Below, in pieces: positions 5,617 to 22,258 of a stretch of DNA of 64,000 nt (the stretch's first letter is position 1; every line of letters begins with the position of its first letter). Origin of the DNA: an uncultured Clostridia bacterium (GTDB taxonomy: Bacteria; Bacillota; Clostridia; Christensenellales; UBA1242); contig CAKVLG010000002.1 of the NCBI GenBank assembly GCA_934756675.1, positions 64,339-128,338 of the forward strand, in the 5' to 3' direction. The position numbers were made by a program, and so were the translations under genes. The notes under the pieces are model-generated. The model was not told where the DNA came from. It was given only the letters and a program-made list of their open reading frames with translations, and did no database searches.

Positions 5617-5639
5617 GTTTATACTTTTGTTTAATTTGT

Positions 5640-5808: not shown

Positions 5809-6396
5809 ATGAAAAACAACGAAATTTTGGAAGATATGGAAAGGGAAACGCTGAGCACTTGGGTAAAAACAATGCTTACCATTTATCCAACATTGCCAAA
5901 CATAATTAAAGTTATCGATAGCATAGTAGAACTAAGAGCAACAAATTTAACTTCAGCATACACTTCAAGTGGTCAGCTTAAATATTCAAGTTATGACCAA
6001 GTCGATCGTGTTATAAAAATGATGGAAAGAAAGAGTAAAATGCTTCGTATCCATGATTTTGTTTGCGACCTAATTAAGCCACTAACAAAGGAGGAATTAA
6101 GGTTTTTAAAGTTGCGATTTTTTACTAGAATGAGAATTGAAAAACTTGTTGAAGTAACTGGAATTAGCACAAGAAGCGTTTATAGAAAAGCTCACCATAT
6201 TATTAGCAAATTAACTAATGCTTTATCTGTACGCGGTATTACATCGTATGATATTGAAGACATGGTAAAAGGTGAACATTGGATATATGCTCAGTACGAT
6301 AAACATGCTAGTGAAAAGAAGACAAACTTTTTAAAAGGACGAAATTTTACTGATCATATGGTAGAAGATAAGAGCATGAAAGAGCAAGTTTGTTAA
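5809..6396 (+). CDS. Sigma-70 region-4-like HTH protein; phage late-gene activator candidate (ArpU/RinA/DUF1492-like logic)
   Basis: 195-aa ORF with an AGGAG SD. The C-terminal half, LTKEELRFLKLRFFTRMRIEKLVEVTGISTRSVYRKAHHIISKL, resembles a sigma region-4 HTH. No region-2-like segment was recognised. It sits upstream of the terminase operon. Confidence 0.45.
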   Translation: MKNNEILEDMERETLSTWVKTMLTIYPTLPNIIKVIDSIVELRATNLTSAYTSSGQLKYSSYDQVDRVIKMMERKSKMLRIHDFVCDLIKPLTKEELRFLKLRFFTRMRIEKLVEVTGISTRSVYRKAHHIISKLTNALSVRGITSYDIEDMVKGEHWIYAQYDKHASEKKTNFLKGRNFTDHMVEDKSMKEQVC

Positions 6397-7287
6397 TTAT
6401 AATAAATCGTCATCATCAAAGTCATACGTGGGAAATTTTGGTTGTTTTTCACAATTTTCTTGCAAAATTTGCGGTTTTTTGCGAACAAAATGATTATTTG
6501 CATAGCTTTCCGCAGTAGCTAAACCATGTTTCTTTTTTCTGCCAGAAAATACGAGTAACAAAAATATTACAAGCATAGGTAAAGATATAATTATAATCAT
6601 AACAGCACGTAATCCACCAGAAAGGTAGATATAATTTTCTTGCGTAGTAAGTCCGGTTTGTTCGGCTGGTAGTAATTCTTGTTCAAACTCGTTATTTTCT
6701 GGTATCGAAGAAAGGTTTTCGGTTTTCTCGCTATAAACATATCCAAAGTAAACACTGACAGGGTCGCTGCTAGGGGAATACTCAGCAAAGTACCAAACAT
6801 TGCTTTTTCCAGATGGTGGAACTTCGCCATAGGTTTTTGCGATGTATGAAATATTGCTTGTGCCACTTTGGATAACGTTTTTGATGTTTGATGAAATTTC
6901 GGTAGTTGGTGTTTCGCGTATTTGCGTTCCTGAACTTTGATTGATTGAAAAGGTTATACCAGTCAAAGTCTTTACATGCGGCTCACCACTTACTTTAAAG
7001 ATTTTTTCTGTTTTTACAAAACCAATAAAACCAGCATAATTTACTTTTGAAATGGTCTGAGTTATTTCACCAATAACTGTTACAAAATATCCACAAGGCA
7101 CTTCAAAATATATGTTTTCAAAAGTGTCAAGCGAGGTATCACTGGTTTTGTATAAAATACATTCATTTTTCACTTTTGCATAAACTGTGTCGTCTGTTGC
7201 TTGAGCAAAACTAGAGATGTTAAATAAACAAAAATTATTGCTAGTTATGCTAAACAAAACGAACAACAAAATCGATAATTTTTTCAT
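6397..7287 (-). CDS. Secreted, membrane-anchored protein with two SH3b-like segments
   Basis: 296 aa. Has an N-terminal signal peptide and a C-terminal TM helix (AVMIIIISLPMLVIFLLLVF) followed by a basic/acidic tail. The SH3b call rests only on pattern resemblance (VYAKVKNECILYKT...). Confidence 0.4.
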   Translation of the reverse strand: MKKLSILLFVLFSITSNNFCLFNISSFAQATDDTVYAKVKNECILYKTSDTSLDTFENIYFEVPCGYFVTVIGEITQTISKVNYAGFIGFVKTEKIFKVSGEPHVKTLTGITFSINQSSGTQIRETPTTEISSNIKNVIQSGTSNISYIAKTYGEVPPSGKSNVWYFAEYSPSSDPVSVYFGYVYSEKTENLSSIPENNEFEQELLPAEQTGLTTQENYIYLSGGLRAVMIIIISLPMLVIFLLLVFSGRKKKHGLATAESYANNHFVRKKPQILQENCEKQPKFPTYDFDDDDLL

Positions 7288-7381
7288 GCTATTATTTTAA
7301 AACAAATGCGTTATTTTTGCTCTATAATTTTTAGTCGAAAATAGTAAAATAATAGACAATTTTAAAGTTTAATAAATTAAT

Positions 7382-7414
7382 AAAAAACGCAAAATTATAA
7401 AAATAAAAGTGAAA
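7382..7414 (+). promoter_or_regulatory. Bipartite motif copy A (AAAAAACGCAAAATT-N11-AGTGAAA); candidate late promoter or activator site
   Basis: Both boxes also occur at 28147-28180 and 61260-61292. This copy ends 63 nt upstream of the TerL ATG. Confidence 0.5.
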
Positions 7415-7476
7415 ATCAATTATAAAAATGTAAAAAATAACAAAAAATTGCAATTTTATACAATTTTTAACACATT

Positions 7477-8928
7477 ATGAATAATATAAAGATTTTGCAA
7501 AAATTAGCCGCTTTAAAAGCAGAACTTATCAGACGAAATCACTTTACACTTGCACGCTATAATACGGGTAAAATTGTTCATAAAAAACAACTACAATTTC
7601 ACAAATGTGACAAGCGAAATAGGTGGGTTTTTGGTGGCAATAGAACTGGTAAAACAGAATGTGGTGCGGTGGAAAGTATTTGGCTTGCACGTGGCAATCA
7701 TCCATATAGAAAGAATAAAAAAGATGTAACAGGTTGGGTGGTAAGTTTATCTACAAAGGTTCAAAAAGAAGTAAGCCAAGAAAAAATTTTGAAGTACTTA
7801 AACAAGTCTTGGATATATGATATTGTAATGAAAAGTGGTAGCAAGGGTAGTGCTGGTTATGGCATTATTGATACTATTATTCTTAAAAATGTTTTTGGTG
7901 GGTTATCTAGAATTAGTTTTAAATCGTGCGAAGAAGGTCGTGAAAAATTTCAAGGTACTTCGCTTGATTTTGTTTGGTTTGATGAAGAACCGCCAAAGGA
8001 TATTTATGAAGAATGTGTTATGCGTGTTATTGATAAAAGGGGTGATGTTTTTGGAACAATGACTCCGCTTAAGGGTATGACTTTTGTATATGACCAAATT
8101 TATCTTAACCCGACAAATGATCCGGAAATTTTTTGCATGTTCATGGAATGGCAAGATAATCCTTTTTTACCAAAAGAAGAGATAGATAGGTTAACAGCTT
8201 CGCTTTCGCCAGAAGAGTTAGAGAATCGCAGATATGGTAGGTTTGTTAATCTTTCCAATTCGCTTGTATATAAAGAGTTTGATGAACAAGAAAATGTTAT
8301 TGAACCTTTTCCCGTTCCACCAGAATGGCAATGTAATATTTCGATTGACCCTGGCTTATCGAACCCGCTTTCTGCACATTGGTATGCAGTTGATTTTGAT
8401 GATAATGTTTATGTGATAGCAGAGCATTTTGAGAGTAACAGAACTATAGAATATCATTCTACAAAAATAAAAGAAATAAGTGACAGCTTAAACTGGCGGC
8501 GTGGAAGAAATGGCATGATAGAAGCACTAATCGATTCGGCAGCTAACCAAAAGACACTTGCTAGCACAAAAAGTGTAACCGAGCTTTTTTATGATAATGG
8601 AATACTTGCAAACCCAAATGTAAATAAGGACCTATTTTCTGGAATTAGTAGAGTTAAAAGTTACCTTAAAAATGAACAAGGAAAAAGTAAACTTTTTATT
8701 TTTTCTTGCTGCACAAACTTAATCCGTGAACTTAAAAGTTATTATTGGAGTGAAGGTGATAGGCCTCGTAAATTTGACGACCACGCACTTGATGAGTTGC
8801 GTTATTTTATTATGTCGCGTCCAGAGAATAAACCGCCACTTCCAGTTAAGTCAGAAATAACAAAAGACAAAGAGCGACTTTATAAAAAACTGCAAAATGC
8901 AAGGAAAAACTATGGAAAATACTATTGA
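7477..8928 (+). CDS. terL: Terminase large subunit
   Basis: 483 aa. Walker A-like GGNRTGKTECG and Walker B-like LDFVWFDEEP, with a C-terminal nuclease-type region (SIDPG...). First gene of the structural operon. Confidence 0.9.
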   Translation: MNNIKILQKLAALKAELIRRNHFTLARYNTGKIVHKKQLQFHKCDKRNRWVFGGNRTGKTECGAVESIWLARGNHPYRKNKKDVTGWVVSLSTKVQKEVSQEKILKYLNKSWIYDIVMKSGSKGSAGYGIIDTIILKNVFGGLSRISFKSCEEGREKFQGTSLDFVWFDEEPPKDIYEECVMRVIDKRGDVFGTMTPLKGMTFVYDQIYLNPTNDPEIFCMFMEWQDNPFLPKEEIDRLTASLSPEELENRRYGRFVNLSNSLVYKEFDEQENVIEPFPVPPEWQCNISIDPGLSNPLSAHWYAVDFDDNVYVIAEHFESNRTIEYHSTKIKEISDSLNWRRGRNGMIEALIDSAANQKTLASTKSVTELFYDNGILANPNVNKDLFSGISRVKSYLKNEQGKSKLFIFSCCTNLIRELKSYYWSEGDRPRKFDDHALDELRYFIMSRPENKPPLPVKSEITKDKERLYKKLQNARKNYGKYY

Positions 8929-9379
8929 TTTTGAACAAATCAAGCAAATTTTAATAAAAAAGGCGAAGGGCTTTTATTATACCGAAGAGGCTGTAGAGTT
9001 TGCTTGCGATGCCGAAGATAAGCTTGTTATTGATGCTAAAACAATGGATGAAAACACAGAATATAAGGTTTCTCTGTCGCAAAAAAATTCTAAAAAAAAC
9101 ACTCCAAAAAGTGGCACATCACAGCTACAGTTTGATTTTTCTGATTTAGAATGTAAAGTGAAAAAGGAAAGCAAAACCGATGCAAAAACTAAAGAAACTT
9201 CTGTGGTTAAAAGGAAAATTACCACGCACTACGTTCCGCCTGATATGCTTGCTATTAAAATGTTGTTTGAAAATTTTGGGGAAAAGGTAGGTGGACTCGA
9301 ACAGTTGTCAGATGAAGAAATATTAAAAATGAAACGTGATTTGCTATCCGAATTGGAGGAAAATGATGAAGATAAATAA
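8912..9379 (+). CDS. Acidic hypothetical phage protein; weak small-terminase-like candidate
   Basis: ATG at 8912 (MENTIDFEQ...), overlapping the TerL end. The segment KRKITTHYVPPDMLAIKMLFENF recalls a motif I associate with some Gram-positive phage small terminases. That recollection is weak. Confidence 0.45.
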   Translation: MENTIDFEQIKQILIKKAKGFYYTEEAVEFACDAEDKLVIDAKTMDENTEYKVSLSQKNSKKNTPKSGTSQLQFDFSDLECKVKKESKTDAKTKETSVVKRKITTHYVPPDMLAIKMLFENFGEKVGGLEQLSDEEILKMKRDLLSELEENDEDK

Positions 9380-9548
9380 AGTTGATGTAAACAGACGTTG
9401 TGACCATGGCATTTGCCAAGAAAAGGCGGCAATTGAAATTGTCCTTGGCGGATATAAAAACCGAATATTGCTTTGCGCTAAATGCTATGAAGAACTAAAA
9501 AATCAAATGAAAACATTAGGGAGAACACCACGTGAAAAACAAGGATAA
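9363..9548 (+). CDS. Small Cys-rich (zinc-ribbon-like) protein
   Basis: GGAGG SD precedes ATG 9363. 61 aa with C-x-H-x2-C ... C-x2-C (RRCDHGIC...LLCAKCYEEL). It overlaps both neighbouring genes. Confidence 0.5.
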   Translation: MMKINKVDVNRRCDHGICQEKAAIEIVLGGYKNRILLCAKCYEELKNQMKTLGRTPREKQG

Positions 9549-11436
9549 AATTACAAAAAATTTAACTAAAGAAAAATATTTTTATGATGAAGATAAAGAC
9601 AAAGAAATTGTAGATTTTGTTAACAGAGATTTCGAAAACAGACGTGAAGAACGCAGACCATATGAACTCTCTTGGGAACTTAATATGAACTTTATGATTG
9701 GCAATCAATACAGTTACATTTCGCCAAAAGGTGACATTGAAGACGTTAACAAAAACTATTATTGGGAAAGCCGCGAAGTTTATAACCATATTGCACCAAT
9801 AGTTGAAACAAGACTGGCAAAGCTTGCAAAAGTTAGACCGACAGCGTCAGTCAGACCGTCTAGCAGTGAAAAGAAAGATGTTTATTGCAGCAAGCTTTCG
9901 AAGGCTATTATATCTAACACAGCAAGTAGGTTAGCTTTAAGCGATATTATTGGTAAAGCTACAACTTGGAGCGAGATTACTGGCACGGCATTTTATAAGG
10001 TTGTGTGGGATAAGTCGCTTGGTGAGATTATTGGAAAAAATGATGATAGCGACATAAAAACTGGCGATGTATCGATTTCTGTTTGCTCGCCGTTTGAAAT
10101 CTTCCCAGATTCTTCGGGCTCTGTTGATATTGAAGATTGCGACTCAATTATTCATGCTAGGGCATATCCGTCAAGTTTTATTCAAAGCGAGTATGGAATA
10201 GATGTAGAAGGCAAGGATATAGACACTTTTTCGTTCGATAATTTTCCGCTTAATAATAGCGTCACGGGAAGTAGTAACATTCAAAAAGTTATTCATGCGA
10301 CAAAGCATGACCATGTACTTTTAATTGAAAGATACGAAAAACCAAATAGCAAAAACAAAAATGGCAAACTTACAATTGTTTGTGCGAACCATTTGCTCTA
10401 TGATGGTGATTTGCCATACATGCTTGGTGATAAAAATGCTAGAGCTTATCCGTTTGTAAAACAAGTGTCTTCGGAAGTTGTGGGCTTGTTTTGGGGAACA
10501 AGTGTTGTTGAAAGATGTATTCCGCTTCAACGCGCCTATAACAGTATAAAAAATCGTAAGCACGAATTTATGACAAGGCTCGCAGTTGGTGTGCTTGCTG
10601 TTGAAGATGGTTCTGTCGATGTAGATAATATCGAAGAGGACGGCTTGGCACCAGGTAAAATTTTGGTCTATCGCAATGGTTCAACGCCACCAACATTTAT
10701 GGATGCAGGGCATATTCCTAGTGATTTTTCGGTTGAAGAAGCAAAACTGTTGAATGAATTTATAACACTTTCTGGTGTAAGTGAGTTGATGCGTGATGGT
10801 TCGGCACCGTCTAATGTATCCAGCGGTACGGCGCTTAACTTATTAATTGAGCAAGATGATACAAGGCTCAGCGTAACCGCAGAGTTCATTCGAAGTAGTG
10901 TAAGGCAAATCAGCCAAATGATTTTAAGATTATATAAACAATTTGCCACGGCAAAACGCATTGCAGAAATCACAGACGAAGATGGTGCTGTTGAACTTTA
11001 TTATTGGAATAACGCAGATATATCTAGCGATGATGTGGTTCTAGACACTACAAATGAGCTTGCCGAAACGCCAGCACAGCGGAAAAACAATGTGTTAGAG
11101 CTTTATCGCAATGGACTTTTATTTGATAGTGGAGACGGAAAAATGAGTAACCGTATGCGACTTAAAATTTTGGACGCTTTGGGATTTGGTATGTTTGAAC
11201 TTTCGCAAGACATGAGTGCGCTTCATATTAAGCGTGCACAAAAAGAAAATCTGGAACTGACAAAACCTATTGTGCCACTCGAAATTGATGACCACGAATT
11301 GCATATTGAAGAGCATACAAAATTTTTGCTCAGCAGCGAGTCAGACGATTTTTCCGCCGAGCACAAAGAGAAAATTGAAAAGCACATTCGTGCGCACAAA
11401 CAACTAATGAAATTTATGAGAGAGGAACAAGTTTAA
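9532..11436 (+). CDS. Portal protein
   Basis: 634 aa with a GTG start after an AGGGAG SD. The N-terminal pattern ELSWELNMNFMIGNQY is typical of portal families. It lies between terminase and scaffold. Confidence 0.85.
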   Translation: MKNKDKITKNLTKEKYFYDEDKDKEIVDFVNRDFENRREERRPYELSWELNMNFMIGNQYSYISPKGDIEDVNKNYYWESREVYNHIAPIVETRLAKLAKVRPTASVRPSSSEKKDVYCSKLSKAIISNTASRLALSDIIGKATTWSEITGTAFYKVVWDKSLGEIIGKNDDSDIKTGDVSISVCSPFEIFPDSSGSVDIEDCDSIIHARAYPSSFIQSEYGIDVEGKDIDTFSFDNFPLNNSVTGSSNIQKVIHATKHDHVLLIERYEKPNSKNKNGKLTIVCANHLLYDGDLPYMLGDKNARAYPFVKQVSSEVVGLFWGTSVVERCIPLQRAYNSIKNRKHEFMTRLAVGVLAVEDGSVDVDNIEEDGLAPGKILVYRNGSTPPTFMDAGHIPSDFSVEEAKLLNEFITLSGVSELMRDGSAPSNVSSGTALNLLIEQDDTRLSVTAEFIRSSVRQISQMILRLYKQFATAKRIAEITDEDGAVELYYWNNADISSDDVVLDTTNELAETPAQRKNNVLELYRNGLLFDSGDGKMSNRMRLKILDALGFGMFELSQDMSALHIKRAQKENLELTKPIVPLEIDDHELHIEEHTKFLLSSESDDFSAEHKEKIEKHIRAHKQLMKFMREEQV

Positions 11437-12134
11437 TGGAAGAAACAAATAGAGTGGAACAACCCGGTTTAGTGGAAAATGTGGCAGATAGTTCGCAAGA
11501 TAAAAACGCGAGCATTGCAACAGAAACTCAAAGCTGTGGCTCCACATTTGGGAAATTTAAAGATGCAACAAGCTTACTTTCTGCATACGAGCATTTAGAA
11601 GCGGAGTTCACGCGAAAAAGTCAAAAAGTGGCTAGCTTAGAAAAAATGCTTGAAAAGCAAACTGCGGCAAGCAGCGGAACAGATAATGCGTTGACAAATA
11701 ATATAGAAAAGTCAAATGAAAATGTTTGCGGTTATGCATATGAGAAAGAAAATTGGAAAGATGTAGTTCAGGAGTTCTTTGATAGCAATCCAACGGCAAA
11801 AGATTACAAAAAAGAAATGGCTATGGTAATAACAGAAACTCCTGAAATTGCACTTTCTCCAAAATGTTTAGATTTGGCACTTGCAATAAGTAAAAGCCGA
11901 ACACTTAAAGAGCCTGCAGAACTTAAAAATGACCAAAACTTTTTAGACAATTATGTGTTGAATGATGCCGGCATAAAAGATAAAATCATTAACAACTACA
12001 TAAGGTCTATATCGCTTGGAGATTTGCCAAAAGTCATAACTGGCATGCCAAGTACAACAGTTGCAACGCCTAGGGCAGCTGCTCCAAAAACAATAAAAGA
12101 AGCAAGCAATCTTGCTAAAAAATACCTAGGCTAG
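11436..12134 (+). CDS. Scaffolding protein candidate
   Basis: 232 aa, rich in E, K, A and Q and likely helical. Lies between portal and capsid genes. TAATG stop-start overlap with the portal gene. Confidence 0.55.
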   Translation: MEETNRVEQPGLVENVADSSQDKNASIATETQSCGSTFGKFKDATSLLSAYEHLEAEFTRKSQKVASLEKMLEKQTAASSGTDNALTNNIEKSNENVCGYAYEKENWKDVVQEFFDSNPTAKDYKKEMAMVITETPEIALSPKCLDLALAISKSRTLKEPAELKNDQNFLDNYVLNDAGIKDKIINNYIRSISLGDLPKVITGMPSTTVATPRAAAPKTIKEASNLAKKYLG

Positions 12135-12152
12135 AAATTATTAGGAGAAAAT

Positions 12153-13364
12153 ATGGTAACTTTAACAAGTGCTGATAATGTGCTTAAACAAGTTTATCTT
12201 GGTGTTGTTTCAGAACAATTAAACACATCAATAAACCCATTACTCAGCAAAATTAAACAAACAACATCTGATGTTTGGGGTAAAGAAATCCGCAAAGTTG
12301 CGCCATACGGACTAAATGGTGGTATTGGTGCTGGCGATGAAAACTCTACACTTCCAACAGCAGCTGGCAATCAATACGCACAATTCGTGCTCTCACTTAA
12401 AAACCTTTACGGTAAAATTGAAATTACAGATAAAGCAATTCGCGCATCTCAAAATAGTAGCGGCGCTTTTGTTAACCTTCTTGATGCTGAAATGGAAGGA
12501 TTGATCAGAGCCAGTGCATTCAACTTTGGTAGAATGCTTTATGGCGATGGTACTGGCATCATCACAAAAATCACAGATAACGATACAACAACAATTACTT
12601 GCGAAGCTGTTAATTGTTTGATTGAAGGTATGGTTATTGATATTGTAGACGCAACTGGCACTGTTTTAACATCTGGAAAAGGTCTTCGCATTACATCGAT
12701 CGATAGAGCAAACAAGGTTGTCACTTTGGCTGGTGCAAGCTTCACAGCTGACGCTTTGGTTAAGTCTGACTCTGTATCTGGTTCTAAGGATTATTTTGTT
12801 GCTGTTCAAGGTTCTTATGGTAAGGAACTTACTGGTCTTGGTGCAATTTTCAAAACAACAGGAACTCTTTATGGTTTGAGCAAAAGCGACTATGGTTGGC
12901 TAAATTGCTACACAAAAGATATTGCAGGTGAAACTTCTAAAACAGATATTAATGATATGGTTATGCAAACTGCTATTGATAATGTAGAAGAAAATGCAAA
13001 CAGCAAAATTGACTTTATAGTTTGTTCTGCTGGTGTTAAAAGAAATTACCAAAACTACTTTACTAGCTATAGAACAAATGTAGACATTATGGATTTAGCT
13101 GGTGGTTATAAGGCAATTAGTTACAATGGTATTCCACTTGTTTCAGATAGATTTGCTCCAGCAAACACAATGTTCTTGCTTAACACAAAAGAATTTAATT
13201 TACATCAGCTTTGTGATTGGCAATGGCTTGAAGGTGAAGATGGTAGAGTTATAAAGCAAGCTGCAGACAAACCAAGTTACACTGCAACTCTCGTTAAATA
13301 CGCTGATATTATTTGTGACCAACCAAGCGGACAAGCAAAAATTACAGGTATTAAGGAATCTTAA
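12153..13364 (+). CDS. Major capsid protein
   Basis: 403 aa with a strong SD (AGGAGAAAATATG). Position directly after the scaffold gene. No prohead protease is present, consistent with scaffold-dependent assembly. Confidence 0.8.
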   Translation: MVTLTSADNVLKQVYLGVVSEQLNTSINPLLSKIKQTTSDVWGKEIRKVAPYGLNGGIGAGDENSTLPTAAGNQYAQFVLSLKNLYGKIEITDKAIRASQNSSGAFVNLLDAEMEGLIRASAFNFGRMLYGDGTGIITKITDNDTTTITCEAVNCLIEGMVIDIVDATGTVLTSGKGLRITSIDRANKVVTLAGASFTADALVKSDSVSGSKDYFVAVQGSYGKELTGLGAIFKTTGTLYGLSKSDYGWLNCYTKDIAGETSKTDINDMVMQTAIDNVEENANSKIDFIVCSAGVKRNYQNYFTSYRTNVDIMDLAGGYKAISYNGIPLVSDRFAPANTMFLLNTKEFNLHQLCDWQWLEGEDGRVIKQAADKPSYTATLVKYADIICDQPSGQAKITGIKES

Positions 13365-13372
13365 AGGAGATG

Positions 13373-13393
13373 GGGCGGGAGTATTTCTCGCCC
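13373..13393 (+). other. GC-rich stem-loop immediately after the capsid gene
   Basis: GGGCGGGA (13373-13380) pairs with TCTCGCCC (13386-13393): 8 bp including one G-T wobble, with a 5-nt loop. It lies between an AAGGAGA SD (13364-13370) and ATG 13403. Confidence 0.5.
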
Positions 13394-13402
13394 TTAATAT
13401 TT

Positions 13403-13792
13403 ATGAAAGACTATTTGATTAAATTTGATGGAATCTTTGATTTATATAACCGATTTAAGAAAATAGATAAAAATTATGAACTATTCTACAATCGAAAAAC
13501 AAACAGATTTGAGCTATATAGTGGTGTTATGCGAAAAAATTTAGAATTAATTTTTGGCGAGCTTAACAGTTCGAAATGTTTGATAAAAACGCAACAATCA
13601 CGTATGCAAAATATCGAGCGTGTGATTAAAGAAATAGAATTATACAACGAAAGATTACAACAGAAAACAATAGACAATTTACGTGACAAAACCATGCTTG
13701 TGGCGGAGGAAGCAATAAATTATGCCGACAAGACAAGCAAGGATATTACGCTGCAAGAGATAAATTCAATTATGGAGAATACAAATGCTTAA
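13403..13792 (+). CDS. Hypothetical phage head-associated protein
   Basis: The ORF track starts it at 13370, but that ATG abuts the SD with zero spacing and lies in the hairpin. ATG 13403 (MKDYLIKFDG...) is more plausible. Function unknown. Confidence 0.5.
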   Translation: MKDYLIKFDGIFDLYNRFKKIDKNYELFYNRKTNRFELYSGVMRKNLELIFGELNSSKCLIKTQQSRMQNIERVIKEIELYNERLQQKTIDNLRDKTMLVAEEAINYADKTSKDITLQEINSIMENTNA

Positions 13793-14354
13793 AGATATAA
13801 TTTTAACAACACTTTTATTGCTAGGAAAAGAAAATGAACTTGTAGAAGTTGAAACTAAAGAAGAATCGGAATATTCGCCAGCAACAAAATCGCTTATATC
13901 GCAACTTATAAAAATTGTTAATTTGGTTGCGTCTGATATCACGCGTAATGTTGTCCGTTTGACTTTTTGCGAAACATTAACTTCTGACGAAAATTGCGAA
14001 ATAAAATACTCAAGTTTATCGAAAAAGGTTATTGGAATTAAAAGCGTAACCGAAGGCAACAAAGATGCAACATTCAATCTTTATCCAGAATATATAAAGG
14101 TGGGTAAACCAAACACTAAATATAAAATCACTTATAACTACGAAAACCAAAAATGTAAGTCTATTGATGATGATATTGTTTTTCCAGTTTGTGTGACTTG
14201 TGGTATTGTTGCATATGGTGTGGCAAGTGAATATTGTTCTATGAATTTGCTTTATGATGAATGCACTATGTGGGAACAAAAATATGTAAGGGCACTCGAA
14301 AATATTATGCCAAAAACTGGTGAAAGAAAAATGGCAAGATGGTGGAATTTATGA
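13785..14354 (+). CDS. Hypothetical phage protein; head completion or adaptor candidate by position
   Basis: 189 aa. Overlaps the upstream stop and the downstream start. Confidence 0.5.
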   Translation: MLKDIILTTLLLLGKENELVEVETKEESEYSPATKSLISQLIKIVNLVASDITRNVVRLTFCETLTSDENCEIKYSSLSKKVIGIKSVTEGNKDATFNLYPEYIKVGKPNTKYKITYNYENQKCKSIDDDIVFPVCVTCGIVAYGVASEYCSMNLLYDECTMWEQKYVRALENIMPKTGERKMARWWNL

Positions 14355-15832
14355 AGAGAATAAAATACCCAAACGGGCACACGTATAAACTTAAACTTTC
14401 GTCATTTGAAGCGGGGCTTGGTGGCAGTGATGAAAATATTATGCCATTTAAGTACGCAAAAGAAACATATAACTTTAACCAAATAGGTGGAAACCTAAAA
14501 ACGGGCATTGGATTTTCGGCATTTTTAAAGTATTTTTGCAGTCCAGATTATCTTGAACAATTTAACGAAAAATTTTCTGAGCTTGGCAAAATTGAAGGTG
14601 TGTGGCACTTTAAGAAATATAACCAGACACTTGGCAAACGAGAAGATAAACTCATTTTTATAAACGACAGTTTGCAAACATATTACATAGATTTTGCAAC
14701 AAACAATGTGGCATTTAACAGGGTATATTCTTTGGCGTTTACATCAAAACCTGTTGCAGTCAACTATAGGCTAGAAGGAAAAGATGTAATTATCTTTTCG
14801 AGTGAAACAGATAACATGGTTGTTTGGGACGGCGAAAATCCAGCTTATAGCGTTTTAGATGCACCAAAAATTTCGTCTATGGCACTTCATTATGAAAGAT
14901 TATTTGTAACTGTCAATGGCGAAAAGAATAGTGTTTGGTTTTCTGATGACCTAGATCCAACAAATTGGACTGTGTCGCTTGATGAAGCGGGTTTTATTCA
15001 AATGGTAGACGAGCGTGGAGCTTTGCAAAAAGTTGTTTCTTTTAATGATTATTTGTATGTGTTCCGCGAGCAAGGTATTAGCAGAATAACAGCGTATGCA
15101 AATCAAGAAAACTTTTCTGTTTCGCACTTGTTTGTTTCGAGTTCTAAAATTTATAGAGATTCGGTTTGCATTTGTGGCGACAAAATTTTGTTTTTAGCAA
15201 GTGATGGTATTTATATTTTTGACGGATACGAAACAACTAAAATACTTCCAGCAATAAGCAAAAAACTTGAAGGACTAAATAACAACACAAGCTACGCTTG
15301 TTATTATAATGGAAAATATTATTTGGCTTGTAAATTTAACTTTGAAGAAAACTCTTCGTTCCAAGAGAGTGAAACCGAAAACAATGCACTTTTTGAAATT
15401 GATGTGAGTAAACTGACGGTTAATATTGCAAGAGGTGTTAGTGTTAACTTTTTGTCTGGCATAGTTTCGGACTTTTTTACGGGCGTACTTGCTGCGGTTA
15501 AGTCGGCAAGTGGGAGAACGCTTGTGGTTATAGATAATTCTGGTAAGCTTTTTGGCAACGTGCTTTCAAAATGCTGGCAATCTACTTTTAGCGATATGGG
15601 GTATCCTTCGAGCAAAAAGATTATTAGACAGATTGTGTTAACTAGTGCTTCGCCTGTTGATGTTATTGTTAAAAATGAAAAAGATGAAACAAGACTTCAT
15701 TTTTCTGGCGGTGGCGTTCCCGAAATTAAACATCTAGTTAAAAGTGGTATGCGGTTTAGTTTTAGAATAGAAAGTCAAAGTGAACAGACAGAAATTAGCA
15801 ATGTTGAAATTTCTGTAAAGGTAGAAGAATAA
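14351..15832 (+). CDS. Phage structural protein; tail or adaptor candidate
   Basis: About 493 aa with an ATGA overlap to the upstream gene (alternative ATG at 14339). Repeated beta-strand-like segments. Assignment rests on position after the head genes. Confidence 0.55.
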   Translation: MKRIKYPNGHTYKLKLSSFEAGLGGSDENIMPFKYAKETYNFNQIGGNLKTGIGFSAFLKYFCSPDYLEQFNEKFSELGKIEGVWHFKKYNQTLGKREDKLIFINDSLQTYYIDFATNNVAFNRVYSLAFTSKPVAVNYRLEGKDVIIFSSETDNMVVWDGENPAYSVLDAPKISSMALHYERLFVTVNGEKNSVWFSDDLDPTNWTVSLDEAGFIQMVDERGALQKVVSFNDYLYVFREQGISRITAYANQENFSVSHLFVSSSKIYRDSVCICGDKILFLASDGIYIFDGYETTKILPAISKKLEGLNNNTSYACYYNGKYYLACKFNFEENSSFQESETENNALFEIDVSKLTVNIARGVSVNFLSGIVSDFFTGVLAAVKSASGRTLVVIDNSGKLFGNVLSKCWQSTFSDMGYPSSKKIIRQIVLTSASPVDVIVKNEKDETRLHFSGGGVPEIKHLVKSGMRFSFRIESQSEQTEISNVEISVKVEE

Positions 15833-18189
15833 TGAATTATGGAAGAATAGCTTATTTAAAAACTATAGAACTAGAGCAGCGTGTAGGCAGTGAAAAAAAT
15901 GAAACCAACAATTTTGAATGTAGCGAATTTTCGGTTGATAATTATAACGAAACGTTCTATGACTCGCACGTGCTTTCGTATCCAATAAAAGTACTGGCAA
16001 ATAAAAGTGTTTGTTTGCAAAGTAAAATTGTAATCTCATGCTCGCAAGAGGAAGAAATTGACATAAAAGTTTTGGCGGGTGATGGCGAAATAGGTTCGTT
16101 TAGCCAAAAACTTACTGTTGGTGAAAATGATATAATTGTCTACAAGTCATACATTTCTGACGTGTCACAAGACATAGATTTAAAAATTCAAATTACGGGC
16201 GAGTACCATGAAAAAACCATTCTTAGGGTTAACACTTTGATTTTTGGCATAGCAGCACAAGGTAGTGTTGATAACATTGAGATGCGCGTGCTTTCCACTC
16301 CAACGCAGATGATAGTAAGTTTTATTAACAGCGGCAAGATTTTTATTTCTAAAACAGATAAAGATAAACTCTATGAAAACTTGTCTTTTGAATACTATAA
16401 AGATGCATCGAGTCATTGTTTTGTAGATGCTGGGAGTGCGGTTAAACTTTATTATGTAAATGCACAGAATGTGCTCAAAGAGTGCGAATATGACGGCTCG
16501 AATGAAAGAATTGTGGCAGAAAATGTAACAAAAGTTTTTGCAATAAAGGCGCCAGATTCCAGCGATGACGATGTTGTTGTTTGCTATCTTTCTGACTCGA
16601 AACCCAAATATAAATGCTTGATAGATGGCGTGTATACATCCGAACGAAATTTGCCATTTCCAGACGGCTCGTACTCCGATATTAGACTGATTTCTGATAG
16701 CGAAAATTTTGTATATGCAATTGCAACAAAAACAAATGGTGCAAACTTTATTATAAAATCAGTCATGGAAATTTCAACAGGCAAACTTGTAGAAAATGTT
16801 AGTGTGTCACTTAGTCATGTAATTAACAAATACTATTGTTTGCCACAAATAGAAGATATGTCGCTTGCAAGTGTTTCTGCAAATGTTGTGATTGCAACAA
16901 GCACTTATTACACATATGCATCACTTTCTAGCAAGGTGTTTACTAGCAATGTGCGGGTAAGTTTAAACCATGATGCTGTTGCTTATCAAATGGAAATTCC
17001 AGAGCCAATAGAAGATGAAATAACTTATGGTATTACAATAGATATGACTAATAGTGATCCAAAGGCAAGCGTAACTTATACAAATGACGCGGTAGGTATG
17101 AGTGGTGCATATATGGATTTTGACAACGATACATTTGTTGATAATGGGTGGCTTAATAAATGGCCATTTAACAAAATCAAGCCATGCATACTTTCTTCTG
17201 TAGGCGAAGTTGCTGGTTATCTTGACCCAAATAATTATACAAAGCTGACAGATGGAACAAGCGTAGATATTTCTGTTAATGGTGACTATGACGTTATGAT
17301 AGAAATCCCCAAAATTTACTATGATATAAAAACGGTCGATAAAGACCATATAACTGTTCAAATATCTAATGGTAGTACCGAAACTAACTGCTGCCGTGCA
17401 TTTCAACACAAAGGTGAAGAGTTTGATAAAATTTATGTAGCGGCATATCATTCGTTTATGCAATCTGATGATAAATTTGTAACTGCCACAGTGCGAAGTG
17501 TTACTGGTGGCAAACCACCAAAAGCATATATTAGTCTAGTCAAAAACCTTACACAAACCCAAATGATTAATTTTATTCATGAACGCGGAGGATATTATGA
17601 GTCGTTCCCATACGATGTTTATATTTTGATTGAATGTTTGTATTTGATTATGTTTAAAAGTCTAAACACTTCAGGTTCTATTGGCCACGGATATAAAGGT
17701 GATACGCTTGTAAACACTGGCACTTTGGATAAAAAGGGCATGTTTTATGGCACAACAGGAAACACTCAAATGAAAATATTTGGAATAGAAGATCTTTACG
17801 GCAATGGCGGTTGTTTACTTACTGGTGTTCAGATTGATAAAAATATGGATATGTATGTTCTTGATCCAACTACAACAGTGCCAGTTTCATATGATCCAGG
17901 AATACAAAATATGGAGCTTGTTTATACCGGCGAAGCTACCTTTAGTGATAAGAGAATTAGAAGAGCGCATGGTTCTAATAAAACAGGAATAATAATCACA
18001 GAAACTGCGGAGATGGGTGAAAATGAGTATTTTAGTGATACACAAAGTTTTGTAAAGTATATGCAGAACTATAGAACTTGTGGGTATAAGATGGATACAA
18101 ATTTAGGCATATTCTCAATACATTCGTCTTATGACTCAAAATATGATATGGAAGGGTTTTGTAGAATGGTTTATTATAAGAGGAGTTAA
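15832..18189 (+). CDS. Large phage tail protein; tail fibre or receptor-binding candidate
   Basis: 785 aa with a TAATG overlap to the upstream gene. No domain recognised with confidence. Confidence 0.55.
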   Translation: MNYGRIAYLKTIELEQRVGSEKNETNNFECSEFSVDNYNETFYDSHVLSYPIKVLANKSVCLQSKIVISCSQEEEIDIKVLAGDGEIGSFSQKLTVGENDIIVYKSYISDVSQDIDLKIQITGEYHEKTILRVNTLIFGIAAQGSVDNIEMRVLSTPTQMIVSFINSGKIFISKTDKDKLYENLSFEYYKDASSHCFVDAGSAVKLYYVNAQNVLKECEYDGSNERIVAENVTKVFAIKAPDSSDDDVVVCYLSDSKPKYKCLIDGVYTSERNLPFPDGSYSDIRLISDSENFVYAIATKTNGANFIIKSVMEISTGKLVENVSVSLSHVINKYYCLPQIEDMSLASVSANVVIATSTYYTYASLSSKVFTSNVRVSLNHDAVAYQMEIPEPIEDEITYGITIDMTNSDPKASVTYTNDAVGMSGAYMDFDNDTFVDNGWLNKWPFNKIKPCILSSVGEVAGYLDPNNYTKLTDGTSVDISVNGDYDVMIEIPKIYYDIKTVDKDHITVQISNGSTETNCCRAFQHKGEEFDKIYVAAYHSFMQSDDKFVTATVRSVTGGKPPKAYISLVKNLTQTQMINFIHERGGYYESFPYDVYILIECLYLIMFKSLNTSGSIGHGYKGDTLVNTGTLDKKGMFYGTTGNTQMKIFGIEDLYGNGGCLLTGVQIDKNMDMYVLDPTTTVPVSYDPGIQNMELVYTGEATFSDKRIRRAHGSNKTGIIITETAEMGENEYFSDTQSFVKYMQNYRTCGYKMDTNLGIFSIHSSYDSKYDMEGFCRMVYYKRS

Positions 18190-18190
18190 A

Positions 18191-20287
18191 ATGAATTGTA
18201 AATTACATAACAAACTAGAGGTTATTCAAGGCGGAAAAACTATTGTTGCATATAACTCAATGTTGGAAACGGTGTATTCTGCAATTGCAAATCTTAAAGA
18301 TTATTTTAAATATATTGTTGTTGGAACGGGAACAACGGAAACTACATTCACAATGACAAAACTTGCTAGCTATTCTGGCGGCGGATATTTGCTTACAACA
18401 GATGCTGTGTCAGCTGATATTAATGCTGATGAGTTATATGTGAAAAAATCTTTTACGTTTGGTGAAAACGATTATAGCGGGCTTACATTTAGTGAAATTG
18501 GCATAACAGATGATTCTGCTAGTAACCCAGATATTTATAATAGAATATTGTTAAAAGATAGTTCTGGCAATGCATTAACTGTAACTAAACGTGATGGTGA
18601 ATCGTTGACGTTGCGTATGACTGTTTATCTTGAAATAGACACTGATTCTAAACATTATTTTACGCTTGGTGAAAATGCACTAATAAAACAATTGATGGGC
18701 GAACATGTTGCGGATAACAAAAACTTATTTGCGATTCGTGGAAGCAACACGTCTGATAATTCTCAGTCAATTGACAGGCTTTTGCCACTTGGTGGGCAAT
18801 CAAAATGTGCGGCAACTGTCGAGGGGTCGGCAAGTGAAAACACCTTTAAAGTGAACTTTGTTGCAAACCTTGGTAATGGCGCGGCAAGAGAAATTGTTTT
18901 TATTTATGCAAACACTGTTGTTGCGCGAGTTAACATAGAAGATAAAGCTGTTATCTATAGAGGTGCACAAGCAATAACTTCAGATTATATGGGGTTTGTA
19001 GACTTTGGTGAAAACTTCAACAACTTCGAAAGTTTAAGTGCAAGTAATGCTCAAAAAAATGTAACAGAAAACGATTTTAAAATAAGTAAGTACACGAGAA
19101 GTCTTGGCGAACAGATTAAAAAAGTTCCTGATTTCAAGCATTTTAAACTGAAGGAAAATAGCAAACTTTTGATGTCGCCAGATGGAAAATCTTTTGTGCT
19201 TGGTCTTGAAAATAATATTCAGTATGGAATATATAAAGTTATGCCGAGCGGTGGTATTGTTGAAATATGTGACAATGCATACAATGATGATGAATGCCGA
19301 ACAGCAAGATTTTATGATTGTGAAATGTATTACTTTACGACAATTATTAATAAGTTTTCACATTATGTTGTTGAAAATGGTGTGCTTGTTTCAAAACCAA
19401 TTGAAAACAACAAAATCAGCTTAATTTATGATCTAAGCAAACTGAAAGATTTTGATGTAAGTATTGCAACAAATGGTCATTTACTTATTGGTATGATTAT
19501 CGAGTCAAATAACAAACAAATTGGCAGTGTGATTGCACTTGAAAAAGATGAAGCTACTGGTGGCTATAAATATCTTTCACATAAAGAAGCAACAATTGAA
19601 AATGTAGACAAAATGGTGTCGTGCCCAAAAGAATGTCATGGCGATGGTGGTTTTTTATTTTTCTCACAATCGACAACTAAGACCGAAAGTGGTAAGGCAA
19701 TTGAGTACGTGACTGAAACTAGCACAAAAATAATAGAAAATGATCAATTTGTGAACTTGGTTCACTTGCCAAACTGTTTTAAAGTTTTGTGTGCAAAAGA
19801 CTTTTTAATTTGTTTAATTCAAGGAACGGCAGCAAATAGAGTTATGATTTATGATATTGTGAATGATAAACATACAAATATTGGTGCAAATACTGTGAAT
19901 GATAATATATATGGGAATGAGGGAAATGATAAATATTTTGTTCAAAACGACCCAGATGGTAATTTTGATGCGCTTATGTATAGAGTGAAATACCACGAAT
20001 TAAAACCATTTGAAGATACTTTGCCATTTGATAAAAGTAATGTATTAAAAGCGTTTTTTGCTAAAGATGTAGTCGTATTTATTGTAAAGATGGCTTCCGG
20101 TGATATTGTAATGCGAGCATATACCCTTGATGAAACATATTTGTATGGCGTTAATTTTGACTGTCCAAACGAAATTTATTTTGGTGATATTTATTATAAA
20201 AAGTATATTGGTACAGATGAATATCAGGGCGTACAAGCAAAACTTACTATTAAAATTGATGGGCCGATAGTAGAGGAAAATACATAA
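18191..20287 (+). CDS. Large phage tail protein; second fibre or spike candidate
   Basis: AGGAG SD precedes ATG 18191 (MNCKLHNKLE...). The track's 18131 start overlaps the upstream gene. 698 aa. Confidence 0.55.
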   Translation: MNCKLHNKLEVIQGGKTIVAYNSMLETVYSAIANLKDYFKYIVVGTGTTETTFTMTKLASYSGGGYLLTTDAVSADINADELYVKKSFTFGENDYSGLTFSEIGITDDSASNPDIYNRILLKDSSGNALTVTKRDGESLTLRMTVYLEIDTDSKHYFTLGENALIKQLMGEHVADNKNLFAIRGSNTSDNSQSIDRLLPLGGQSKCAATVEGSASENTFKVNFVANLGNGAAREIVFIYANTVVARVNIEDKAVIYRGAQAITSDYMGFVDFGENFNNFESLSASNAQKNVTENDFKISKYTRSLGEQIKKVPDFKHFKLKENSKLLMSPDGKSFVLGLENNIQYGIYKVMPSGGIVEICDNAYNDDECRTARFYDCEMYYFTTIINKFSHYVVENGVLVSKPIENNKISLIYDLSKLKDFDVSIATNGHLLIGMIIESNNKQIGSVIALEKDEATGGYKYLSHKEATIENVDKMVSCPKECHGDGGFLFFSQSTTKTESGKAIEYVTETSTKIIENDQFVNLVHLPNCFKVLCAKDFLICLIQGTAANRVMIYDIVNDKHTNIGANTVNDNIYGNEGNDKYFVQNDPDGNFDALMYRVKYHELKPFEDTLPFDKSNVLKAFFAKDVVVFIVKMASGDIVMRAYTLDETYLYGVNFDCPNEIYFGDIYYKKYIGTDEYQGVQAKLTIKIDGPIVEENT

Positions 20288-20541
20288 TGCAATTTAATAG
20301 AAAGCTTGCAAAAATTGGCAAAGGTAAGTTTGCTAGTGGCTATGTTGAAAGTGATGGCAATATCATAATTTATCTTAATAGTGGTGGTATTCAAAAGAAA
20401 TTACTTTCGCAAAACGATGATGTAATTAACCTAACAAATAAAGAAATTATTTCTGGAAAAAGTGAAATAATTAAAGTTTCTGAATCTGTATTTGTTCAAA
20501 GAATATTGCAAAAGGTAGCGATAAGAAGTAGTGATAAATAA
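20287..20541 (+). CDS. Hypothetical small phage protein
   Basis: 84 aa with a TAATG overlap. Last gene of the first coupled block. Confidence 0.45.
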   Translation: MQFNRKLAKIGKGKFASGYVESDGNIIIYLNSGGIQKKLLSQNDDVINLTNKEIISGKSEIIKVSESVFVQRILQKVAIRSSDK

Positions 20542-20655
20542 TAATCAAAATTTAACAAAAAACGCAAAAATGTACTTTATCAATATGCAAAAACACATAA
20601 ATATATACAATTTATTCAATAAAAATAGAAATGAATAATTTTTAGGAGAGTAAAA

Positions 20656-21543
20656 ATGTCTAATAAAAATGAAGAAAAAGAAAGGGAAAATGATCCAATA
20701 AAACATCTAGAAGAAATCCAAAAGAAGTATGGTAATCTTGATTATATAGATGCTCCACCAACTCTTGGCTTAGAGAAAAAGACGTTCAATGATATGAGCA
20801 ATGACGAACTCTTGGATTATGCATTGAAGTCTGTCGATAAAACTCAGACCGACAAAAATAAACAAGAAATATCCGATTTGTATGGCGGCAAGATTGATAA
20901 AAAGAATGATAAAAAAACCGAGCTTGAAGAAACTGGTAAAAAATCACAATCAATTATAAATGCAGCTTATGATAAGTCGAGTAAAAATTTATCAAATGAT
21001 GCATTGAAGCGCGGACTTGCACGTTCGTCTATTGTGATCAATCAATTGTCAGGGTTAGAAGAAAATCGTGCAAAAGATTTGGTTGAAGAGATGAACACAA
21101 TTAATACTAAAATGAGTAATATTTCCGAAGAGATTGCTGAACTTGAAAAATCGAGAGATAGTGCACTTGAAGATTTAGACATAAGTTATGCGAAATCGCT
21201 TGAAAAATCAATTAGTGAGAAACGCAAGGAACTCGACAAAGAAAAAGAAGAAGTATTTGCGTTTAACAATAAAGTTGACCAGCTTGAAGCTGACTATCAA
21301 ATTGAACTCGAAAAACAAAGAAAAGCAAAAAGGAAAGAAAACATGGAGTACCGTGCAAAATATGGATATACATTAGATGAGCTTAAAATGCAGAACGAGA
21401 TGTATAACTATATGATGAACTATCTTGGTAACATGTCGAAGAAAGATGCACTTGCTGAACTGCTTGGTAAAAGTGAATACGAAAGATTGCTTGGAGATAA
21501 ATATTTAGAAATATATGCTTTCACAAGAAATAGAAAGTTGTAG
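20656..21543 (+). CDS. Coiled-coil, charged hypothetical protein
   Basis: 295 aa with an AGGAGAG SD. Very rich in K, E and D with heptad-like stretches. Confidence 0.5.
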   Translation: MSNKNEEKERENDPIKHLEEIQKKYGNLDYIDAPPTLGLEKKTFNDMSNDELLDYALKSVDKTQTDKNKQEISDLYGGKIDKKNDKKTELEETGKKSQSIINAAYDKSSKNLSNDALKRGLARSSIVINQLSGLEENRAKDLVEEMNTINTKMSNISEEIAELEKSRDSALEDLDISYAKSLEKSISEKRKELDKEKEEVFAFNNKVDQLEADYQIELEKQRKAKRKENMEYRAKYGYTLDELKMQNEMYNYMMNYLGNMSKKDALAELLGKSEYERLLGDKYLEIYAFTRNRKL

Positions 21544-21554
21544 GGAGATAGAAA

Positions 21555-22133: not shown

Positions 22134-22134
22134 T

Positions 22135-22164
22135 ATGCCGCCGCTTAGGCGGTATATTTTTTTT
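22135..22164 (+). terminator. Intrinsic terminator closing the phage-like cluster
   Basis: ATGCCGCC-GCTTA-GGCGGTAT stem-loop followed by T8. Confidence 0.75.
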
Positions 22165-22258
22165 GTAAATTAGTTGAAATTTTTTTTATAGTATTGTATA
22201 ATAAACTAATTAGTAAGACTTTTGTTGCAGAATAAAAAATTTTAGCAGGGGTAATATT

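Follow-up and report, generated by a model that had tools for sequence, protein, structure and literature searches.

A bipartite DNA element of uncultured gut Clostridia stands ahead of a domesticated phage-like gene cluster and at host operons

In a 64,000-nucleotide stretch of the genome of an uncultured Clostridia bacterium (contig CAKVLG010000002.1, positions 64,339 to 128,338; hereafter the window), a bipartite DNA motif recurs ahead of both operons of a phage-like gene cluster and at host genes, and this motif is conserved across a group of uncultured gut Clostridia. It consists of a 15-mer, AAAAAACGCAAAATT (box 1), followed at a short distance by AGTGAAA (box 2). As claimed in the original prediction, which was made from the sequence of the window, the exact 15-mer is present three times on the + strand (7382-7396, 28147-28161 and 61260-61274; copies A, B and D), and AGTGAAA follows at 7408, 28174 and 61286, after spacers of 11, 12 and 11 nt. 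Direct reading also confirmed that copies A and D are identical at 30 of 33 positions. The half-site reported in addition does exist, as AAAAAACGCAAAAAT, but its true place is 20557-20571 and not 20560-20574; it is box 1 of a fourth, degenerate copy. Only copy A and the 20557 copy are intergenic, and they lie before TerL and before the second operon, so that the motif indeed stands upstream of both transcription units of the cluster. The settings given earlier for the other two had to be corrected, copy B lying in an open reading frame (ORF) of 219 amino acids (aa) and copy D within recG. We tentatively propose, at somewhat less than an even chance, that the motif is the recognition element of a cluster-encoded activator of the Ltr type, made of helically phased repeats, which has spread to a few host operons.

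The motif is not due to chance. In Markov-chain simulations of the window, any 15-mer occurred three or more times on one strand in just 2-3.5% of the sequences, and a relaxed bipartite pattern (a 12-mer, 10-13 nt and a 7-mer, with at most two mismatches) was found four times in the window against 0.06 expected. The earlier rough estimate that the repeats exceed chance is borne out by both results. When the 15-mer alone was counted in the window with at most two mismatches, six sites were found against 2.9 expected, which is no enrichment; the signal therefore resides in the exact copies and in the linked second box. A 15-mer with one mismatch at 41524, in coding sequence and followed by AGTTAAA instead of AGTGAAA, passes the relaxed scan and has an expect value (E) of 0.82 in the profile search described below; it was treated as a chance match. 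A metagenome scan with box 2 and its 3' tail returned at least 128 sites, and box 1 lay upstream in none of the matches listed, so that composition does not link the two boxes.

Coincidence of A-rich composition and codon usage might nevertheless be considered, at least for the coding copies B and D. The copy D peptide, QKTQNY..LSEI, gives 14 of the 15 bases when written in AT-rich codons, and all five strain substitutions around copy B fall at third codon positions. The simulations and the bipartite count speak against this explanation, a rare ACG codon is kept in three species, and coding cannot explain the recurrence in other genomes and at intergenic sites. For the motif family as a whole coincidence is disfavoured, and we find it hardly credible. 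The rare codon supplies the CGC of copy D: ACG represents 13% of Thr codons and is retained in all three species compared, whose RecG proteins are about 57% identical. In the recG gene of one relative (L169; such labels denote related sequences) the exact 15-mer is followed by AGTAAAA. An insertion origin of copy D was ruled out by native conserved RecG residues, the alignment of RecG homologues showing that the peptide QKTQNY..LSEI is conserved.

The claim that the motif is functional DNA under selection is supported, the boxes being kept while the spacers change. In the orthologous obg-yhbY intergenic regions of two Lapin metagenome-assembled genomes (MAGs), both boxes are identical letter for letter and 4 of the 11 spacer positions agree. 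In strain variants of copy B (L002-L004), three of the 12 spacer bases are substituted and all 22 box positions are unchanged. The element upstream of the second operon occupies the orthologous place in the window (20557) and in the MAG Lapin-023 (L030:1180), that is in two genera, and the DUF7934 orthologues downstream are only 38% identical. As the boxes are kept and the spacers are unrelated between copies, these patterns indicate selection and not recent copying.

The motif is more general than is apparent from the window alone. One genome per species of GTDB release 232 was scanned with the query AAAAACGCAAAATT-N11/12-AGTGAAA, a genome-wide count having been among the checks proposed earlier. 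Nineteen exact matches were obtained, 14 of them in nine related, uncultured Clostridia-type MAGs (31-44% G+C) with one to five copies per MAG; the remaining five are scattered across genomes and look like chance. An extended element profile, built from the aligned copies with box 2 variants included, detected about 30 elements in 234 kb of clade DNA, among them four in the window and one just past its right end. This is no genome-wide density, because the clade DNA was mostly picked via the motif. Existence, conservation and distribution of the element are thus direct observations. They show that a regulon-like set spanning a clade can be defined from a motif that was spotted by eye in a single window. 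The view of the motif as phage-specific was not upheld: host operons carry copies in several genomes, and a scan of viral contigs gave only three matches, treated as chance. Most exact copies in other genomes lie at host housekeeping operons, the host sites in relatives being pcrA-ligA, lepA-hemW, obg-yhbY, mcsB-clpC, tsaE and an O-methyltransferase-U32 peptidase pair. Three of the 13 independent exact hits in other genomes (lepA-hemW, pcrA-ligA, and unit 2 to the U32 peptidase gene) fall within regions syntenic to the window, against about 0.4 expected by our own estimate, which assumes genomes of about 2 Mb and is post hoc with small numbers. Two further exact hits share a contig with the cluster. 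Relative to the flanking genes, about 13 copies are in sense orientation and 4-5 of 25 are antisense (L021, L031, L028, L037). An orientation tied to replication was also considered; the antisense copies are on the C-rich strand, so a strict strand rule fails.

Comparison of orthologous junctions revealed turnover. In the window, pcrA and ligA are 2 nt apart and lepA and hemW 11 nt apart (window 47526-51739 compared with L029, and 37272-40255 with L026), whereas in the Lapin MAGs longer gaps at both junctions are filled by an element; element sites therefore turn over between species. Such presence or absence at orthologous intergenic regions would be expected of a selfish or structural repeat of the repetitive extragenic palindrome (REP) or miniature inverted-repeat transposable element (MITE) type moving between intergenic regions. 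The element also fills short operon-internal intergenic regions, often starting on the TAA stop codon, and box 1 palindromes are found in L022, L027 and L164. We consider a mobile repeat very improbable, given that there are only one to five exact copies per genome, that the common form has neither a terminal inverted repeat nor an RNA or DNA hairpin, that the spacers differ wholly between copies with the boxes kept, and that the recG copy is native coding sequence. The copy in the L164 scaffold gene lies in a variable linker and shows no clean insertion, its origin being ambiguous. An inverted right arm matching box 1, as in a MITE or hairpin element, was no commoner downstream than in controls. 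A structured RNA was likewise rejected, as RNAalifold predicted 0 pairs in 11 aligned copies; an Rfam search gave no match at the gathering threshold and just one chance match (E 0.62) at E<=1.

The aligned consensus of the element reads T-AAAAAACGCAAAATT, N11(12), AGTGAAAAAAC, N2-3, TCAAAA, N2-4, (G)CCA, and a search with box 1 only recovered the box 2 variants ATGAAAAAAC, TTGAAAAAC, ATGCAAAAC, ATCAAAAAC and ATTAAAAAAC. A-tracts recur every 10-11 bp across about 60 bp of the element, with invariant G/C triplets at their junctions, and from this phasing the element is probably intrinsically curved. Direct repeats are apparent in several copies. The 20557 copy and L165 contain ACGCAAAA-N13-ATGCAAAA, L167 has three TGCAAAAA units with gaps of about one and two helical turns, and L172 has three repeat units at 22 and 10 bp. 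At the cluster, the copies read as A(C/T)GCAAAA units at whole-helical-turn spacing ahead of both operons; these repeats are imperfect, both before TerL and before unit 2, with CGCAAAA set against GTGAAAA or TGCAAAA.

Phased A-tracts that curve the DNA, and UP elements, are familiar upstream of Gram-positive promoters such as the C. perfringens plc promoter. Like these, the present element has A-tracts phased at about 10.5 bp upstream of promoters, and the copy at L020:5231 lies directly upstream of a canonical TTGACA-N17-TATAAT, in UP-element position; unlike these, it has invariant G/C triplets and a 15-mer conserved across genera. The reader could be a host protein that acts on curved phased repeats, whether a global regulator, a nucleoid-associated protein or a response regulator, or the element could be an UP-element-like module that strengthens neighbouring promoters; in both cases the cluster regulator would have no part in it. 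The A-tracts themselves, the occurrence in both orientations at variable distances from gene starts, and the housekeeping operons that hold most copies in other genomes are consistent with this explanation. It accounts poorly for the strict conservation of CGC and (G/A)TG inside the A-tracts, for the small number of copies (one to five exact per genome), and for the element being found at all seven cluster loci and at the regulator gene itself in three lineages. Moreover, none of the known operators compared fits the boxes (CcpA cre, CodY, Rex, CtsR, LexA, Spo0A, PurR, ComK, IHF and parS), and the lack of fit to the first eight, which are Firmicute consensus sequences, also speaks against a host protein. 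We therefore regard a host protein of this kind as improbable.

The cluster extends from 5809 to about 23158 and comprises a sigma region-4-like gene, a membrane-protein gene in the opposite orientation, and structural and lysis genes in two operons separated by 114 nt. Among the genes of 5809-23158 no integrase, repressor or replication gene was found and TerS was not recognised. The window itself has about 34% G+C, the standard genetic code, a class A RNase P RNA, a SigK gene and an hrcA-grpE-dnaK-dnaJ row, and proteins identical to those it encodes were found only in human-gut metagenome assemblies. Five further species have the same order (giant surface protein, regulator, membrane protein, TerL onward) at the same chromosomal place. 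Their TerL proteins are 69-80% identical to that of the window (69-82% across the species), whereas RecG identity is only 57% for the species whose TerL is 80% identical, and no sequenced phage has a TerL more than 30% identical to that of the window. The shared place in six species, the TerL and RecG identities and the lack of a close phage TerL indicate a vertically inherited, domesticated element. The description of the cluster as an ordinary prophage was thus not upheld, as it is chromosomally fixed, inherited vertically and devoid of integrase and replication genes. From its genes it looks like a domesticated podovirus-type particle cluster resembling FpGTA, a gene transfer agent (GTA) of Faecalibacterium. 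The surface protein next to it is encoded on the - strand (1-5680) by an ORF of at least 1,835 codons, which has a signal-peptide-like N-terminus and runs off the left end of the window; its orthologues, with called lengths of 2,233 to 7,015 aa, always adjoin the cluster.

The candidate reader of the boxes is the 195-aa basic protein (isoelectric point 9.3) encoded about 1.1 kb upstream of TerL, at 5809-6396. Profile matches of this protein and its homologues are to sigma region 4 only (SigF, SigW, SigL, FliA), together with a weak match to RinA TIGR01636 (E 0.006); the family counts 207 representatives at 50% clustering. An AlphaFold2 model from a 45-sequence alignment reached a predicted local distance difference test score of 94 (43 with a shallow alignment). 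This predicted fold consists of two long N-terminal helices, a region-4 helix-turn-helix (HTH) and a C-terminal helix, with no region 2 detected, and its HTH superposes on region 4 of SigF, SigD and SigL with root-mean-square deviations of 1.6-1.8 A. Among viral proteins, this protein is best matched by phage proteins of 124-170 aa that carry the labels DUF1492, Sigma-70 region 4 or transcriptional activator. By its model and these matches, the protein is of the Ltr-type (RinA/ArpU/LtrA/LtrB) late-activator kind. The earlier suggestion that it reads the motif is therefore strengthened as regards the kind of protein and the presence of boxes at all cluster loci; that it is the binder, and that its binding activates transcription, we infer.

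Sequences upstream of the regulator gene may bear on how this gene is controlled. A LexA-box-like GAACAT(A/T)TGTTC is present in L164, L165 and L166, and a similar AACA-N-TGTTC/TGTTT in L167, L168 and L173; in the window, the shorter regulator-upstream region (5681-5808) has no clear LexA box. This suggests that the cluster may receive SOS input and possibly Spo0A input. The regions concerned are L164:7900-8236, L165:7890-8328, L166:7827-8241, L167:7953-8176, L168:7677-8025 and L173:1585-2128. In the relatives, Spo0A-box-like TTTCGACAAA or CGACAAA repeats stand beside TTGACA, of which window 5760-5790 keeps only TTGACA and the CGACAAA / GACAAAA part.

At least one element was found at each of the seven cluster loci examined, which represent several lineages. 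In the window, copy A lies in a 189-nt intergenic region between the oppositely oriented gene for a 296-aa membrane protein and TerL. The original prediction had correctly placed it upstream of TerL; the distance from its end to the TerL ATG (7477) is 62 nt and not 63. The orthologous region of L165 keeps box 1 together with the box 2 variant ATGCAAAAC, the element upstream of TerL reading AAAAAACGCAAAAAT-N11-TATGCAAAAC. In L167 the corresponding element is degenerate and carries the three TGCAAAAA units, and in Lapin-023 (L164) a full element is found, inverted, in the intergenic region between TerL and the membrane-protein gene. Lapin-023 has three further elements, one where the portal gene starts and one within the scaffold gene (L164), and one ahead of unit 2 (L030). 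In L168 an element precedes the major capsid gene. In three lineages the element falls within the annotated 5' end of the regulator ORF (L166:8242-8340, L168:8026-8200, L172:18-180), where it is read as KKRKI... or similar. These ORF starts are probably over-called, because the conserved protein core begins further downstream, and the element there is probably part of the promoter or leader of the regulator gene itself. The more distant regulator homologues lie on contigs of 1-3 kb; L172, with its element, is among them.

In pac phages such as SPP1, the small terminase binds to phased repeats within bent DNA. An alternative offered originally was accordingly that the motif is a packaging (pac-like) site, here for the terminase of the GTA-like particles, the host copies being packaging start points. 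One copy does adjoin TerL, and copies are enriched around the cluster. The distribution fits poorly, as copies are also found at the lysis operon, at the regulator gene and in conserved orthologous host intergenic regions; in addition, no gene of the cluster was recognised as that of a small terminase, viral contigs lack the motif apart from the three matches taken as chance, and FpGTA packages seemingly random chromosomal fragments with even coverage (PMC12946183). A packaging site is highly unlikely, and an activator site is the best supported reading, still slightly short of an even chance. Likelihood falls progressively from a site for a host architectural or global regulator to a REP-like repeat, a pac-like site and coincidence.

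The proposal of an activator site can be stated as follows. The motif would be the core of a DNA control element of about 55 bp, composed of two (sometimes three or four) phased direct repeats A(C/T)GCAAAA / (G/A)TGAAAA within phased A-tracts. It would be bound by the Ltr-type activator of the cluster (5809-6396 and its orthologues), which would sit upstream of or over weak promoters and turn on the packaging and structural operon, from TerL onward, as well as the lysis operon; in some lineages it would also turn on its own gene. Host operons with extra copies would then be co-regulated, which in the window would concern X-rarA-pcrA and recG.

The Ltr superfamily comprises the families RinA, ArpU, LtrA (Sigma70_r4), LtrB (DUF1492) and LtrC (PMC3753634). 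Its members bind a block of about 59 nt upstream of terS that contains two to four direct repeats (PMC3753634), and are the only phage proteins needed for the modules of packaging and lysis to be switched on (PMC3753634; PMC3152322). The cluster resembles these systems, which belong to temperate phages of Gram-positive bacteria, in encoding a small basic region-4-like HTH regulator just before the packaging module (PMC3152322, PMC3753634) and, as proposed here, in using one activator for the packaging and structural genes and for the lysis genes. A likeness may also exist in the imperfect direct repeats that precede the first packaging gene, two to four of which form the cis site of the Ltr systems, and in a putative SOS-type operator ahead of the regulator gene (the LexA-box-like sequences of the relatives). 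The cluster differs in that it is no prophage, being vertically inherited and without integrase and replication genes; in that a membrane-protein gene lies between regulator and boxes, the first gene being TerL with TerS not recognised; and in that boxes are also found at host operons, where they are conserved across species. Phage late-activator boxes are known as a kind; what would be new is their setting in a domesticated GTA-like cluster and their spread to host genes.

Several observations weigh against the cluster activator as the reader. Since most exact copies elsewhere accompany host housekeeping operons, the reader could be a host factor; in addition, 4-5 of 25 copies are antisense, the copy upstream of TerL in L164 being inverted. 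The distance from box to putative core promoter is 75 nt for copy A and 47 nt for the 20557 copy. Upstream of TerL, the closest species (L167) has only a degenerate copy, and L166 and L168 have none. Between the activator gene and the boxes lies a convergent membrane-protein gene, which classical Ltr systems do not have there. Lineages whose activators share only 23-44% identity have the same box 1. Finally, the statistics of enrichment at the cluster are post hoc and rest on small numbers.

The main rival, an unlikely one in our judgement, is that an alternative sigma factor of the host uses the element as a self-contained promoter, which would act as an internal or secondary promoter of a small regulon. 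In this layout, AACGCA of box 1 with the A-tracts would be the -35 and GTGAAA of box 2 the -10, 17-18 bp apart, with the start at a conserved TCA about 12-15 nt downstream. The hexamers are 23-24 bp apart from start to start, as in the geometry of the sigma-70 family, and the spacer length stays at 11-12 nt. At +14/+15 after GTG the copies share a pyrimidine-purine step with an A run after it, box 2 of the sense copies lies 15-75 nt before a start codon, and GGAG is found exactly 23 nt downstream in three intergenic regions. The layout can be likened to that of the sigma-H consensus, RNAGGAWWW-N11/12-RNNGAAT. It also resembles that of sigma-I promoters, CNNAAA-N13/14-CGWA with an A-tract in the -35 (PMC4711584, PMC10575876): both are bipartite, with a C-containing triplet and a minor-groove-read A-tract upstream, a short xGAA-type core and a fixed spacing.

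The boxes, however, fit no described sigma consensus. The -10 tetrad is GTGA or TGAA and not CGWA or GAAT (CGTA occurs only in L164:12008), and the spacing exceeds that of clostridial sigma-I promoters by 1-2 nt. A sigma-I promoter was rejected for this element, since the -35-like part fits CNNAAA and the downstream core does not fit CGWA; no sigI gene was seen in the 64-kb window. Four or five copies would fire antisense into gene 3' ends, the L026a copy stands just ahead of a terminator with no gene to drive, and box 2 is too variable for a stringent -10 (ATGAAA, TTGAAA, ATGCAA, ATCAAA, ATTAAA). A canonical SigA promoter was also rejected. The sigma-70 consensus scan gave total match counts at shuffle level and no site formed from both boxes together at the four window copies; at copy B, one sigma-70-like match uses CAAAAT of box 1 as its second hexamer. 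This agrees with the earlier remark that the motif is unlike SigA promoters. The further remark that it fits no SigE/K/F/G/H or CcpA consensus also stood, the comparison finding no fit to the known consensus sequences of SigH/F/G/E/K/D/B/L, extracytoplasmic function (ECF) sigma factors or SigI. When box 2 was taken as a -35, an nAWWWT -10 was found 17 bp downstream in 13 of 24 copies. This signal recurs at intervals of about 10 nt and may therefore reflect mere A-tract phasing, which tells against the promoter layout as well. Were a host sigma factor the reader, the motif would be a new promoter class for a poorly known clostridial lineage.

The sequence TATACAATTT occurs only twice on the + strand of the window, once ahead of each cluster operon and downstream of the boxes (Table 1), and is plausibly a core promoter common to both. 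Before TerL, ATAACA-16-TACAAT is the only sigma-70-like site that the consensus scan found in the intergenic region; the boxes do not supply its -35 or -10, and the surrounding TTGCAATTTTATACAAT region is conserved as TTGCAATTTTCTACAAAT in L165 and as GCCATTTTCTACAAAT in L167. TerL has no Shine-Dalgarno sequence, and a 23-codon ORF from the GTG at 7410 overlaps its start as ATGA. Its translation may proceed from a near-leaderless mRNA, TACAAT being so close to the ATG, or by coupling.

Table 1. Positions of the boxes, the putative core promoters and the cluster genes in the window
Feature	Position	Strand	Remarks
Copy A	7382..7429	+	Box 1 AAAAAACGCAAAATT, 11-nt spacer, box 2 AGTGAAA (7408-7414), A-rich tail; profile E 7e-4
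Fourth, degenerate copy	20557..20594	+	Box 1 AAAAAACGCAAAAAT (20557-20571), 11-nt spacer, box 2 variant ATATGCAAAAAC (20583-20594); profile E 1e-4
Copy B	28147..28180	+	Box 1 28147-28161, 12-nt spacer, box 2 28174-28180; exact match
Copy D	61260..61292	+	Box 1 61260-61274, 11-nt spacer, box 2 61286-61292; within recG (60614-62578), codons for QKTQNYTNLSEI
Weak element-like stretch, AAAAACCGCAAATTT-N11-TGTGAAAAAC	6432..6479	-	Profile E 0.25; 3' coding end of 296-aa gene
First TATACAATTT, putative core promoter	7457..7466	+	-10-like TACAAT, 13 nt (7464 to 7477) before TerL ATG; within conserved TTGCAATTTTATACAAT (7448-7464)
Second TATACAATTT, putative core promoter	20604..20613	+	47 nt past start of 20557 box 1, 43 nt before DUF7934 ATG
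Gene of 195-aa basic protein (pI 9.3), candidate reader of boxes	5809..6396	+	Sigma region-4 HTH
First operon	7477..20541	+	TerL, P22/SU10-type portal, scaffold, major capsid protein, tail proteins
Second operon	20656..23158	+	DUF7934 protein, holin, 299-aa protein

The GafA and GafYZ activators of GTA clusters carry sigma-like or HTH DNA-binding parts and are themselves under global host regulators. As a comparison of kind, the present system resembles GafA of Rhodobacter capsulatus (PMC6363796) and GafYZ of Caulobacter crescentus (PMC11150451) in having a dedicated activator for a domesticated phage-like cluster; those are alphaproteobacterial and their proteins unrelated, and in the parts of these sources consulted no comparable dispersed box family was found described. 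Another parallel is FpGTA, which forms podovirus-like, DNA-filled particles in Faecalibacterium (PMC12946183). It is likewise a podovirus-like GTA-like element of gut Clostridia conserved across a genus, and has two operons, one for packaging and head and a second with tail and lysis genes, the likeness meant here being one of layout. It differs in that a regulator and a cis motif are proposed here and none is described there (PMC12946183).

A broader scenario, which we consider doubtful, is that a phage late activator was domesticated together with the GTA-like cluster and that its boxes were then recruited to host operons, so that particles and a host programme would be switched on together. 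The recruited genes would include those of DNA repair and recombination (recG, rarA-pcrA, pcrA-ligA) and of quality control and translation (clpC, lepA-hemW, obg-yhbY, tsaE), and the joint programme would lie downstream of SOS, through the LexA boxes, and possibly of Spo0A-type inputs at the activator gene. If so, different parts would here make up a Gram-positive counterpart of the alphaproteobacterial CtrA/GafA wiring of GTAs. It is only recently that GTA-like particles were found to be widespread and active among gut Clostridia (FpGTA, PMC12946183). With the element, the candidate regulator and a few host genes that may be co-regulated, all three of them conserved in several uncultured species, control of such a clostridial cluster becomes directly testable.

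Further observations concern individual copies. The 20557 copy stands upstream of the second operon with its DUF7934 gene (20656) and holin gene (21555). Copy B lies downstream of the rnpB terminator, within codons 4-15 of the called 219-aa ORF (28138-28797), which is the first gene of the X-rarA(mgsA)-pcrA row. It is contained in a Lys/Cys-rich N-terminal extension of 43 aa (28138-28268), which may really be translated, because all five strain substitutions are at third codon positions. A TATAAT 11 nt ahead of the ATG of this ORF (28126 to 28138) would make a near-leaderless mRNA. As to the weak element-like stretch at 6432-6479, a conserved Lys-rich peptide may be its sole cause.

Two types of related sequence were seen outside the window. 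In L024:1617-2284 (minus strand), after each of two tRNA-like genes come a terminator and a triple repeat, AAGTGAAAAGTGAAGAGTGAAAAG, which is the box 2 core in tandem. The perfect box 1 palindromes, AAAAACGCAAAA...TTTTGCGTTTTT, lie at L022:969-1000, L027:3489-3530 and L164:9934-9960; they resemble weak A/U-rich bidirectional terminators, and one of them is located in the TerL leader of Lapin-023.

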